From NCBI RefSeq assembly GCF_000026545.1, contig NC_011601.1: 64,000 nucleotides of DNA; one strand, 5' to 3'. The stretch's first letter is position 1. Each line of letters starts with the position of its first letter. The stretch comes from Escherichia coli O127:H6 str. E2348/69. Lineage in GTDB: Bacteria; Pseudomonadota; Gammaproteobacteria; Enterobacterales; Enterobacteriaceae. Made by a program: the position numbers. Positions 42,160 through 57,100 of the stretch are shown piece by piece.

Positions 42160-45100
42160 TCAGAATTAACTTAACTGTGAATCATGATGTTTTTAGCATC
42201 CTGATAAGAGCTAAAAGTTTTAACGCTACGTTGTTCGATGGTCAACGCAACGAAAAACAATTCAGATTTTCTTTATAAGAATAGCTGATATTTATTAAGT
42301 TAATATTAAGCAGTGAAATTTAGTCTATAAGATAATTGGCAAAAAAAAGCCCGGTGCAATATACGCCGGGCCTCAATTTTATTGTTGGTTAAATCAGATT
42401 AATCCAGCCATTCAGTATGGAACACACCTTCTTTATCAATGCGCTTATAAGTATGCGCACCGAAATAGTCACGCTGTGCCTGGATCAGGTTCGCAGGCAG
42501 AACAGCGGCACGGTAGCTATCGTAATAGGCAACCGCAGCAGCGAAGGTCGGAACCGGGATACCGTTCTGTACTGCATAAGCAACGACATCACGCAGCGCC
42601 TGCTGGTAGTCATCGGCAATTTGCTTGAAGTACGGAGCCAGCAGCAGGTTAGCGATCTGCGGATTTTCGGCATAAGCATCGGTGATTTTCTGCAGGAACT
42701 GCGCACGGATAATGCAGCCAGCACGGAAAATCTTCGCGATTTCGCCGTAGTTCAGATCCCAGTTGTACTCTTCAGACGCCGCACGCAGCTGAGAGAAGCC
42801 CTGAGCGTAAGAAACGATTTTGCCCAGATACAGCGCACGACGAACTTTCTCGATGAACTCACCTTTGTCGCCAGCTGGCTGCGCTTGCGGGCCAGAGAGA
42901 ACTTTAGATGCGGCAACACGCTGCTCTTTCAGAGAAGAGATATAACGTGCAAACACAGACTCGGTAATCAGCGACAGCGGTTCGCCGAGATCCAGCGCGC
43001 TCTGGCTGGTCCATTTACCGGTACCTTTGTTAGCCGCTTCATCCAGGATCACATCAACCAGGTAGTTACCGTCTTCATCTTTTTTAGTGAAGATGTCTTT
43101 GGTGATGTCGATCAGGTAGCTGCTCAGTTCACCGTTATTCCACTCGGTAAAGGTCTGTGCCAGTTCTTCGTTAGAGAGATTCAGGCCACCTTTAAGCAGA
43201 GAATAGGCTTCAGCAATCAGCTGCATATCACCGTATTCAATACCGTTGTGAACCATCTTCACATAGTGACCTGCGCCATCGGCACCAATATAGGTAACGC
43301 ATGGCTCACCGTCTTCAGCTACTGCGGCGATTTTGGTCAGGATCGGAGCAACCAGTTCATAGGCTTCTTTCTGGCCACCAGGCATAATGGAAGGACCTTT
43401 CAGCGCGCCCTCTTCACCACCGGAAACACCGGTACCGATGAAGTTAAAGCCTTCGGCAGAAAGCTCACGGTTACGGCGAATGGTGTCCTGGAAGAATGTA
43501 TTACCACCATCAATGATGATGTCACCTTTATCGAGGTACGGCTTGATGGAATCAATAGCAGCATCCGTGCCAGCACCTGCTTTCACCATTAACAGGATGC
43601 GACGAGGCGTTTCCAGAGATTCAACAAACTCTTTCACCGTATAGTAAGGAACCAGTTTCTTGCCTGGATTTTCGGCAATCACTTCTTCCGTCTTTTCACG
43701 GGAACGGTTGAAAATAGAGACGGTATAACCACGGCTTTCGATGTTGAGCGCAAGGTTGCGCCCCATCACTGCCATACCGACTACGCCGATCTGTTGCTTT
43801 GACATTGTTTACTCCTGTCAGGGGTGGTTACCGCCAAGTGTGCGGCTTGGATATGATGCAGATGTTAATATAAATACAGGTAAATCTCACATGTAATGTC
43901 AATGAGAATTGAAACAATGAAAACTCTACATTGCTATCCAGTTTTCATTTTTAAGAGAGCATTCATTTCCGGATATGTACCATTGTTTAGGCGCGATGAC
44001 TAGCTTATCTTCTGACCTGTTTAGCCATGCCCCCCACCAACTATATGTGCTGTTTGCAATAATATTATTATTACACAATGACATTAAATACATATCAATT
44101 ACACTAAATTTGTTTTCATCAGCATCAGCAACCAAGCAATTGCTATATTTTGAGAATTTTTCCTTTGCCCATATGACATCATCTGTAAAGATTATAAATG
44201 TCTGAGAGCCACATTCACTTTCAATGTATTCCATTGCACTAATATAATAATCCATACTTAGAGTGCCGTGAAATTTTGCAGCATGTTTATTATTTACATA
44301 ATCTCCACGTCGCACATGAATTGACGTTATATTCTTAGAGTCAGTAATTAAGGAATATATTTGTAGGTTATGACATAACACGCGAAGATCATCACGTATT
44401 TCAAAAAGGGGCAAAATTAAATCCCTATGTTCATTTAATAATTTAGAATCTTGGTAAAATGAGAATAGACACGCAACATCAATGTTTTTAATTGATTCCG
44501 GATTGTAATAAGAAGCATCATTTAATGAATATTTATTACACAGTTTAATTGCAGTGAACTGAAGAAAACTGTTAAGCAGTGGTATTTTTTTATGTTTCCT
44601 CAAACGATTTATTTTTACTTTTTCATCTTTAGAACTAAACCTATCAAAAATAATTTTAAATTGATCAAGCTCAAGATGTCGTATAGTATCTTTTTGAGGC
44701 TGGTTGAAATAATAACTATCATCAAGCACTAATATAGTATCAGGAAAATGTTGCTTAAGGATATAGGCTGCAGCATATTGGAACATTTGATTACCTAACC
44801 CACCGGATAGACAGCAATACATCATTAAGTCCTTATTTAACTAATGCTTTAATAAAATGATATGTACAAGAAAGAAAACTCATTATACTTTTCTTTTTAA
44901 GAAATTCTCGCAAAGAATACCCAGCACATTCATAATATGCCAGTTTAGACTTCTGTGTTGAATTTGAGTGAACACGGTAATTTAACAAAGGCTCTTCCAT
45001 ATTATCCCAACGTGGTTTTAAGCTTCGCATTCTTAACCACAAATCATAATCTTCAGAGTTAAAACCACCATTATACCCTCTTGTTTTAAGAAACAAATCT

Positions 45101-54100: not shown

Positions 54101-57100
54101 TGTTCTTAAAAATACTCAACCTAAAATAATGCTTTTATATGCTGAAGCATAGTTCTCGATAACAAATTTCCCGGAGGCACGAATTGCCTGTTCCCGATAA
54201 TTTTCATAGTCATCGAATATTTTATCCAATTTATATCCAATGTCGTCTTCAGTATTTTCCACAAGTAACCCATTACCCTCAATTAATTCAAAACATCCGC
54301 CCACATCACTTAACAGGAGTGGTATTGCAGCTGTGTGAGCCTCAAGGCCTGACATAGGCAAACCTTCACTATCGGATATCAGTGAAAATAAATCATACTC
54401 ATGATAGTTATAAAAATTATTGACCTCACCCAAAAAATGAATATTTTCACATTCACTGAATTGTTTCTTCAATGATTCTAACCTTTCCCCCCCTCCTACG
54501 ATATGGAGGCTATACTGGGGCTTTTTCGATATTACATTCGCTAACAACTCGGGGCGCTTAGGGTGTGTTAACCTACCAACAAACAGAACCTTATACTGGA
54601 GTTGTTTATTATTACATCTCGGCATCTGAGGCACTGAATTCGATACTGTGATTATCTTTGGTTCTTTTATACCAATATTCTCAATTGCCTTTTTTTCATC
54701 ACTTTTGGAAACACACCATATAACATCAGTTAATAAAGAAAGGTATTTTTCCACAATGCAAAAAATTGATTTTAGGCGACCACCATTATATAAACAAGAC
54801 CATCCATGCGAAACATAAATACATTTAAAGTCGACTAGTAATCGAACTAACCTGGCATAAACTCCGGCATTAGCAGAACTTGCTATTAACGTTGAAATGT
54901 TATTTTCTTTTAAAATTTTTCTCAATTTAAACAATGTAAGGAAGTCAAAATATTTTTTAATACCTGGTATGACAAAAACTCCGGCAAAGACATCTTTATG
55001 TGTGAGCCATCCTTCTTCAGATGTAATAAGAAATATATTACATTCCTCTTTAATAAGGTTAGATATTTCATTTACCCATGTTTGTGCACCACCAATTTCT
55101 GATTTTGTAACAATAAAACCAACATTTTTCATATATCAAAATTCCAAAAATTATTTTTTATATCCATTTGGATTGTTTGTTTGCCAACGCCATACATCTT
55201 CGATCATTTCTTTCAATTTTTTTTCCGCTTTCCAGGAAAGCTTTTTATGTGCTAAATCAGCAGACGCCCATGACTCCGCAACATCCCCCTCACGTCTATT
55301 ACAAATAGCAACAGGTATACTCTTTTTAGTGACTATCTCAAACATTTTTACAATCTCTAAAACAGAATAACCTTGACCAGTGCCTAAATTAAAAGCTTCA
55401 TAATTGACATCATTTAAAAACATATATTCTAATGCTTTAACATGCCCTTTAGCCAAATCACAGACATGTATATAGTCTCTTACTCCTGTACCATCTTTAG
55501 TTGGATAATCGTTGCCATAAATATTTAATACAGGAAGTTGATTTTGTGCAACTTTAGATATATAAGGAACCAGATTATTAGGAATCCCGTTAGGATTTTC
55601 ACCAATCATCCCGGACTTATGTGCTCCGATTGGATTAAAGTAACGCAGTGCAATTACTGATTTATTATTATCACTATCACAATAATCACTCAAAATTATT
55701 TCTATTATAAATTTCGATGTCCCATATGGGTTTGTAGTTTCACCAATTCGTCTATCTTCCGTATGGGGAGGGATACTGTTATTCCCATAAACAGTAGCAG
55801 AAGAGCTAAATATCATTTTATTAATGTTATATCTCTTCATGCATTCAAGTAATACTAAAGTTCCACCAACATTATTAGAATAATACTCTAAGGGCTTTAA
55901 CTTAGACTCACCTACAGATTTTAACGATGCAAAGTGAATTACAGCATCGATATGGTGTCTTGAAAAAATCTCATCAAGTAGATTTTTATCACGGATATCA
56001 CCTTGATAAGAAATAATTTTCTTATTAGTTATTTGCTCTACTCTTTTTAATGATTCTATAGAGGAATTGACAAAATTATCTATCGAAACGACATCATGAC
56101 CATTATTAAGTAACTCAAGTATGGTATGGGATCCAATATATCCTGCACCGCCTGTTACGAAAATCACCATATAAACCTCCTTTACCATGAGGATTGAGAG
56201 AAAAACACACGCTACCGCCCTTGGCTTAACAGTTACCAACTCACTGAAAATGAATCATAGGTACTAAGCATTTAATACTTTTCACTATTTTCCAATTGTC
56301 TAACCAAACGAAGTCAGATACAAGGAAAATCTATGTCCGAGCGATACTTGCGGTAACTTATTGTTATTAAATACTTTAAATAAAAGACAGGAACATTCTT
56401 ATAATGTAAGCATCTCTGCTTTTGAATGTTCACTGCCGTTCTATTTTTATTCAATCCACCATATATGGATGATTAATTTTTATTCGCTTAACAGCTTCTC
56501 AATCCCTTTACGGAACTTCGCCCCTTCTTTCAGGTTGCGTAGTCCATACTTCACAAACGCCTGCATATAACCCATTTTTTTACCGCAGTCGTAGCTGTCG
56601 CCGGTCATCAGCATGGCATCAACGGACTGTTTTTTCGCCAGCTCGGCAATGGCATCAGTCAGCTGAATACGTCCCCATGCACCAGGCTGAGTACGTTCAA
56701 GTTCCGGCCAAATATCGGCAGAAAGCACATAGCGACCAACGGCCATGATGTCTGAGTCCAGCGTCTGCGGCTGATCCGGCTTTTCGATGAATTCAACAAT
56801 GCGGCTGACTTTACCTTCACGATCCAGTGGTTCTTTTGTCTGAATGACTGAGTATTCAGAGAGCTCACCCGGCATACGTTTTGCCAGCACCTGGCTGCGT
56901 CCCGTTTCATTGAAGCGCGCAATCATGGCAGCAAGGTTGTAGCGTAGCGGGTCGGCGCTGGCGTCGTCGATCACAACGTCTGGCAGCACCACGACAAATG
57001 GATTGTCACCAATGGCAGGTCGCGCACATAAAATGGAGTGGCCTAAACCTAAAGGTTCACCCTGACGCACGTTCATAATGGTCACGCCCGGCGGACAGAT

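Follow-up and report, generated by a model that had tools for sequence, protein, structure and literature searches.

The stretch of DNA analysed here, 64,000 nucleotides from Escherichia coli that are called the window throughout, carries at positions 43926-56170 of its minus strand 12 close-set genes flanked by galF and gnd, as seen both in the list of open reading frames (ORFs) and in the RefSeq annotation. This locus is almost certainly the Wzx/Wzy-dependent O127 O-antigen biosynthesis operon (genotype O90/O127) of the enteropathogenic E. coli (EPEC) strain E2348/69. In a direct comparison, 64,000 of 64,000 window bases match NZ_LT827011.1 (E. coli O127:H6 EPEC E2348/69) with 0 mismatches, and a 20-kb query returned one 100% match, again to this EPEC E2348/69 record; because of the absence of any mismatch over the entire length, the window is the E2348/69 sequence and the cluster that of O127. 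Set beside the described O127 cluster (wbi genes; E2348/69, O127:K63(B8) type strain), the locus has the same sequence as E2348/69, the same gene order and the same galF-gnd site, and no difference was detected. The O127 antigen, a mimic of the H type 3 determinant of human blood groups, is the serotyping marker of this prototype EPEC strain, and its cluster in E2348/69 is a well-studied textbook locus, already known, to which no new biology is added. The analysis itself establishes what the locus is, to which family each product belongs and how the operon is laid out; for the sugar structure and for what WbiQ, WbiP, WbnH and Gnu do, the literature is the source.

Identity and layout of the O127 operon

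Read from the galF side, the cluster consists of gne, a glycosyltransferase family 4 (GT4) gene, gmd, fcl, gmm, manC, manB, wzx, an acetyltransferase gene, wzy, a GT2 gene and a GT11 gene, all on the minus strand. The flanking genes gnd (42399-43805) and galF (56480-57373) were identified by Pfam scan. The ORF list gives an unbroken minus-strand run from 43926 to 56239, the gene coordinates agree exactly with RefSeq, and position 56170 is the annotated ATG of gne. Families were called with Pfam and NCBIfam profiles at scores far over the curated cut-offs, and gaps were computed from the annotated coordinates. None of the 12 genes has a frameshift or internal stop. The family scores together with the gene layout are not a chance pattern. 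The gene content and coordinates between galF and gnd given in an original prediction made from the DNA alone are thus matched by RefSeq, Pfam and NCBIfam, and its shortlist of serogroups, O86, O127 and O128, included the right one, the window being that of O127:H6 strain E2348/69.

The part from wzx to the GT11 gene (43926-48666) was matched in only 10 of 5,426 complete E. coli genomes, with at least 99.5% identity in each case and with the annotation "O90/O127 family O-antigen flippase / polymerase" in all ten; the best matches were E2348/69 and two records that bear the name Escherichia coli O127:H6. Base composition differs along the cluster, with a GC content of about 30% in wzx, the acetyltransferase gene, wzy, the GT2, GT11 and GT4 genes and gne, of 53-56% in manB and gmd-fcl-gmm, and of 36% in manC.

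The intergenic distances, -8 to +26 nt among the 12 genes, fit a single transcript. Upstream of gne, at a distance of 38 nt, the minus strand carries a JUMPstart element (56208-56246; Rfam RF01707, E 1.5e-9) that scores 52.5 bits, the gathering score being 35, and the ops sequence GGCGGTAGCGTG can be read directly within it at 56208-56219. The element is the probable operon leader for RfaH-dependent antitermination, and the 12 genes would be transcribed as one unit from upstream of JUMPstart/ops. The spacer between wbiQ, the GT11 gene at the distal end, and gnd was scanned for a terminator and a promoter, and none was found.

The interval 43926-56170 stands as the extent of the twelve genes, but two linked genes lie outside it. 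One is gnu (57616-58611, minus strand), located between galF and wcaM and encoding, by its RefSeq product name and Pfam Epimerase match, the GlcNAc-PP-undecaprenol 4-epimerase (GlcNAc, N-acetylglucosamine; PP, diphosphate), a marker for N-acetylgalactosamine (GalNAc) as the initiating sugar (PMC7685785), which fits the O127 structure. This gene is thus found beyond the usual galF-gnd O-antigen interval, yet needed for the GalNAc primer. The other is wzzB (39860-40837, minus strand), the O-antigen chain-length determinant, located downstream of ugd and assigned from the RefSeq annotation of the identical sequence. The genes for WecA and WaaL are not in the 64-kb window.

Antisense ORFs at 42417-43592 (plus strand, 391 amino acids) and 53001-53798 (plus strand, 265 amino acids) lie opposite gnd and gmd respectively, both high-GC genes; they have no RefSeq annotation and are most likely spurious.

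Gene products and proposed assembly of the repeat unit

For O127 the repeat unit has been published as ->2)-L-Fuc(a1-2)-D-Gal(b1-3)-D-GalNAc(a1-3)-D-GalNAc(a1->, composed of fucose (Fuc), galactose (Gal) and two GalNAc residues, with acetylated fucose (PMC7685785). A four-sugar unit is matched by a primer and the three glycosyltransferases encoded in the cluster, and the composition predicted earlier, a Wzx/Wzy-dependent unit of an N-acetylhexosamine primer, three transferase steps, an alpha-1,2-linked fucose and an O-acetyl group, agrees with this structure; the possibility of a serogroup whose unit lacks fucose does not apply, as the O127 unit contains it.

The first gene, gne (55151-56170, RefSeq: galE; ORF-finder span 55151-56239), encodes a UDP-hexose/UDP-HexNAc 4-epimerase (TIGR01179 GalE, 425 bits; Pfam Epimerase/GalE-like) with 99.7% amino acid identity to its counterpart in an O86 strain; it would supply UDP-GalNAc, with the UDP-GlcNAc specificity as given in the literature. 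The adjacent GT4 gene at 54116-55132 (wbiN; Pfam Glycos_transf_1, 8.4e-21, and Glyco_transf_4) codes for a protein 100% identical to WbnH of the O86 strain, with which it shares the accession WP_000799972.1. Source entries name this protein 'WbnH' and 'O86/O127-antigen biosynthesis alpha-1,3-N-acetylgalactosaminyltransferase', while the RefSeq product name is "glycosyltransferase family 4 protein". A transferase had correctly been placed here, but its label GT1 has to be replaced, as Pfam Glycos_transf_1 corresponds to CAZy GT4.

The third sugar is assigned to WbiP (44833-45570), a GT2 beta-1,3-galactosyltransferase (Pfam Glycos_transf_2, PF00535, 1.9e-20) in which the DxDD motif is present as DSDD at residues 88-91. 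For the WbiP of O127 (B7UT68, an E2348/69 entry), beta-1,3-galactosyltransferase activity on a GalNAc-alpha-R acceptor has been characterised, and the DxDD motif is essential to it (PMC4202792). The fourth sugar falls to WbiQ (43926-44825), a GT11 alpha-1,2-fucosyltransferase. Membership of this family, as proposed originally, is borne out by PF01531 Glyco_transf_11 with 91.3 bits against a cut-off of 23.9, residues 2-297 aligning over the full length of the profile (positions 2-295 of 298), and by motif I (HxRRxD), found as HVRRGD at residues 170-175, which is the GDP-fucose-binding motif of GT11 enzymes (PMC8593560). A comparison of the GT11 protein with the sequences of the Protein Data Bank (PDB) found no relative. 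WbiQ of O127:K63(B8) has been characterised as an alpha-1,2-fucosyltransferase whose preferred acceptor is the T antigen, Gal(b1-3)GalNAc, and whose product is H type 3 (PMC4202792; PMC8593560), and transfer of fucose from GDP-fucose to O-2 of beta-galactose is ascribed by these two papers to Pettit et al. (2010). Both WbiP and WbiQ are in use for chemoenzymatic glycan synthesis.

The WbiQ product Fuc(a1-2)Gal(b1-3)GalNAc is the H type 3 determinant. Since the fucose within the polymer carries the next unit at its O-2 and is also acetylated, the free trisaccharide is expected, going by the published structure, only on the non-reducing terminal or on a single unit. In a lectin-array study, E2348/69 was bound by galactose-specific C-type lectins via the O127 galactose (PMC7135977).

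The complete GDP-L-fucose pathway that had been predicted is present, with all four enzymes, ManB, ManC, Gmd and Fcl, encoded and intact. Gmd (52968-54089; ORF-finder span 52968-54119) belongs to the GDP_Man_Dehyd family (PF16363, 523 bits), Fcl (52000-52965; WP_000089908.1) is a GDP-L-fucose synthase (Pfam Epimerase, 5.2e-64), ManC (50056-51504; ORF-finder span 50056-51513) combines a mannose-1-phosphate guanylyltransferase with a mannose-6-phosphate isomerase domain (NTP_transferase, 1.9e-64; MannoseP_isomer, 4.4e-51) and ManB (48679-50052) is a phosphomannomutase (NF011943, CpsG-type, 1039 bits; four PGM_PMM Pfam domains). In between, gmm (51497-51997; ORF-finder span 51497-52000) encodes a GDP-mannose mannosyl hydrolase of the NUDIX type (NF011963, 315 bits against a cut-off of 146; Pfam NUDIX). 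The phosphomannose isomerase ManA is encoded elsewhere.

The products of wzx (47395-48666; RefSeq 'O90/O127 family O-antigen flippase') and wzy (45571-46737; RefSeq 'O90/O127 family') gave no Pfam match at E values up to 10 and no NCBIfam or PDB-sequence match, so that these assignments need indirect support. Wzx, with 423 amino acids and at least nine strong hydrophobic segments in a crude Kyte-Doolittle scan, which gives a lower bound, agrees with the expectation of a polytopic O-unit flippase of ~400-500 amino acids and about 12 transmembrane helices. Dozens of proteins related to it at 31-38% identity (E 1e-57 to 1e-71) carry PF01943 Polysacc_synt, PF01554 MatE or PF13440 Polysacc_synt_3, and the domains of these relatives place it in the MOP flippase superfamily; the assignment is well supported and agrees with the curated name.

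Wzy is a polytopic membrane protein of 388 amino acids, identical in sequence to UniRef Q5J7C8, "O-antigen polymerase". The Q5J7C series we take to stem from the O127 cluster sequence of Feng et al. Tested against Wzy profiles (PF14296, PF04932 and the NCBIfam polymerase models), the protein gave no match, and among its relatives, 13 clusters only, none (0 of 13) carries a Pfam domain; given the extreme divergence of Wzy proteins, a missing profile match is common among them. The AlphaFold model for which these relatives served as input is confident (predicted local distance difference test, pLDDT, 84; predicted template modelling score, pTM, 0.85) and appears to resemble WaaL, FtsW and RodA, with the polytopic fold common to WaaL and the SEDS proteins; in a Foldseek search of the model against the PDB, WaaL ranked first, though not significantly. 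These tests moderately support the assignment as O-antigen polymerase, which agrees with the curated name.

Located between wzy and wzx, wbiO (46745-47398) encodes a hexapeptide-repeat, CatB/Vat-related O-acetyltransferase (Hexapep PF00132, 49.6 bits against 27, 2.4e-13). The ORF is open over 217 amino acids, and its ATG start shares 4 nt with the end of wzx, stop codon included (ATGA). TIGR03308 covers residues 28-212, alignments to CatB and Vat start from about residue 70 and GlmU-like similarity at about residues 50-70; the CatB-, Vat- and WbbJ-like matches stay under the equivalog cut-offs. Versions of 133, 173 and 217 amino acids of this gene product exist in databases, and the ORF finder adds a GTG-start form of 238 amino acids (46745-47461); where checked, the choice of start codon on identical DNA explains these length variants. 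The 133-residue form (Q5J7C9 and others) was considered as a true truncation and rejected for every readable contig. As the DNA matches the window upstream of Met85, or the contig stops there, the short form is, at least in these cases, a gene-calling artefact or reflects a contig end.

A further cluster for comparison is that of O86 (wbn/wbw genes, blood-group-B-like), which is described as having the first seven genes in common with O127 (PMC7685785). From gne through manC, the two are at least 99% identical at the nucleotide level, with identical GT4 and Gmd proteins, and manB is 90% identical, with a likeness that collapses in its last ~300 nt. Beyond this, amino acid identity amounts to 59% for the GT2 and 49% for the GT11 protein, and wzx, wzy and the fifth gene are unrelated (17-18% amino acid identity for wzx/wzy), O86 carrying the GT6 galactosyltransferase WbnI where O127 has the acetyltransferase. 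BLASTP of Wzx and Wzy against the O86 Wzx and Wzy found no significant similarity, which makes transfer of the annotation from O86 impossible.

Taken as a pathway, WecA, encoded elsewhere, would synthesize GlcNAc-PP-undecaprenol (-PP-Und), which Gnu would epimerise to GalNAc-PP-Und. With UDP-GalNAc supplied by Gne, the GT4 enzyme WbiN (identical to WbnH) would add the alpha-1,3-linked GalNAc as second sugar and the GT2 enzyme WbiP the beta-1,3-linked Gal, while ManB, ManC, Gmd and Fcl would convert mannose-6-phosphate to GDP-L-fucose, with Gmm as the associated Nudix hydrolase. WbiQ would then add the alpha-1,2-linked Fuc to give Fuc(a1-2)Gal(b1-3)GalNAc(a1-3)GalNAc-PP-Und, an H-type-3-like structure whose fucose is the presumed target of O-acetylation by WbiO, in an order relative to flipping that is likewise presumed. 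Subsequently, Wzx would flip the unit, Wzy polymerise it via GalNAc(a1-2)Fuc, WzzB set the chain length and WaaL, encoded elsewhere, ligate the chain to lipid A-core.

Weighing of alternative readings

Against the reading as O127 operon with the published chemistry speak that the sequence by itself cannot separate O127 from O90, that residue-for-residue identity of the window GT11 protein with the characterised WbiQ (Q5J7C6) is presumed, and that the fucose as acceptor of WbiO, like the acetylated position, is presumed as well. The O90 and O127 clusters are reported to be almost 100% identical (PMC7685785; PMC4732683), and the O90 unit shares the backbone tetrasaccharide, but its units are joined beta-1,4 and its fucose is acetylated at another position (PMC7685785). 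By the published description the O90 cluster is near-identical in sequence to the window and the RefSeq 'O90/O127 family' names of wzx and wzy are common to both; typing of these two genes by SerotypeFinder or ECTyper would return O90/O127, not O127. Because sequence typing is ambiguous in this way, the O127 call rests on the strain recorded as O127:H6. That the cluster specifies O90, with beta-1,4 polymerisation of the same backbone and the other fucose acetylation site, could also draw on the acetyltransferase, which in the window has the long form of 217 amino acids, as the review gives for O90 WerU, with the O127 WbiO shorter (PMC7685785). This is highly improbable, however, as the window is base for base the genome of E2348/69, recorded as O127:H6 and used as such in the literature (including PMC7135977). 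Furthermore, for O90 a Wzy shorter by three residues is described (PMC7685785), whereas the window Wzy with its 388 residues is exactly Q5J7C8, and the 133-residue acetyltransferase entries examined on window-identical DNA represent gene calling or contig ends, no real truncation.

With O127 as the preferred assignment, the same length variants bear on whether the cluster is fully functional, since the acetyltransferase might be a truncated remnant, with the O-acetyl group provided from another locus or absent. The 133-residue product appears in public entries for the same gene (Q5J7C9 and others), the substrate of WbiO is a presumed one, and the O127 WbiO has been described as matching just the 3' region of its O90 homologue WerU (PMC7685785). 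Such a remnant is nonetheless very unlikely, as the window ORF is open for its 217 codons from the ATG overlapping the wzx stop, the hexapeptide-transferase homology starts upstream of Met85 (at residue 28, or at about 50-70) and 12 of 12 cluster genes are free of frameshift and internal stop. A further proposition, that gmd-fcl-gmm-manC-manB simply duplicates the GDP-fucose genes of the colanic-acid locus and is redundant for O-antigen synthesis, starts from the 92-100% nucleotide identity of gmd, fcl, gmm and manB to the colanic-acid copies, from their GC content of 53-56%, like that of the E. coli core genome, and from the PGAP name of manB, 'colanic acid ... CpsG'. Yet the block is located inside the O-antigen operon, under JUMPstart, between transferase genes and wzx, and manC is distinct, of low GC and just 60% identical to cpsB. 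The colanic-acid genes are Rcs-induced and poorly expressed at 37 C, so that the O-antigen copy is likely the GDP-fucose supply in ordinary growth, and redundancy of the block is unlikely; as a question of gene origin and possible redundancy, it leaves the identity of the locus unchanged.

Two further strains with related clusters were looked at. The cluster of CM2010-0578/1 (NZ_CP087564.1), whose match is 10 nt shorter, was considered as an O90 allele and rejected, as it contains ~20 single-base indels and its wzx, wzy and GT2 genes are annotated with frameshifts; homopolymer sequencing error, not biology, seems to be the cause. In strain MB22 (poultry, O90/O127 genotype; NZ_CP073974.1, 12117-14333), the GT4 gene (wbiN/wbnH) is split by the IS5-like element ISKpn26, which probably abolishes O-antigen synthesis.

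Colanic-acid paralogues and other features of the window

Within the same genome, the O-antigen and colanic-acid copies show nucleotide identities of 94.7% for gmd, 100% for fcl, 91.6% for gmm, 92.4% for manB/cpsG and 60% for manC/cpsB, and the fcl accession WP_000089908.1 is common to both. The colanic-acid locus differs in having wcaI between gmm and cpsB and in its flippase, polymerase and transferases. An identical tract of 1,513 bp at 51647-53159, which comprises the 5' part of gmm, all of fcl and the 3' end of gmd, has its colanic-acid counterpart 18,376 bp away, past the end of the window, and offers a substrate for recombination. An independent Korean clinical isolate carries the tract too, and the poultry O90/O127-genotype strain and the O86 strain lack it, a distribution that identifies it as a lineage-specific gene conversion. 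The shared sequence has 11 differences to the O86 O-antigen copy as opposed to 49 to the colanic-acid copy of the O86 strain, which hints at overwriting of the colanic-acid copy.

Another E2348/69 assembly, NZ_CP059840.2, is without 18,376 bp. The crossover is located in gmd (window 53340-53451); it leaves a hybrid gmd, of which the O-antigen copy contributed the 3' part and the colanic-acid copy the 5' part, with wcaF as the next gene. Such a deletion would take out the GT4 gene, gne, galF and gnu, together with the colanic-acid genes from wcaM as far as the fcl or gmd of that cluster. Either it is genuine, making this a rough, colanic-acid-negative variant of the stock, or the assembly has collapsed here. 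A literature search found no paper mentioning CP059840; the O14 type strain provides a published precedent for such a deletion, via manB (PMC7685785). We tentatively consider it possible, though rather doubtful, that in the E2348/69 lineage gene conversion homogenised gmm-fcl-gmd, that the direct repeats thereby constitute a recombination hotspot at which one crossover deletes 18.4 kb and ends O127 synthesis together with half of the colanic-acid genes, and that NZ_CP059840.2 carries this deletion, as it appears to. If true, some laboratory stocks of the reference EPEC strain may be rough and colanic-acid-negative, unnoticed.

Distant from the O-antigen locus, the window contains at ~2400-22900 a propanediol-utilisation island of cobUST, pocR-pduF and pduA-V, with a cobalamin riboswitch at 5589-5763. 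Its pduC gene (9408-11009), for the large subunit of propanediol dehydratase, has an in-frame stop at 11007-11009 by which the last 20 codons are lost, so that its end reads GYRL, stop, GERWEEIKNIPGALDPNEID, stop, and it is a pseudogene in RefSeq. The segment of the pduC/pduD junction was found in just 640 of 5,426 complete E. coli genomes.

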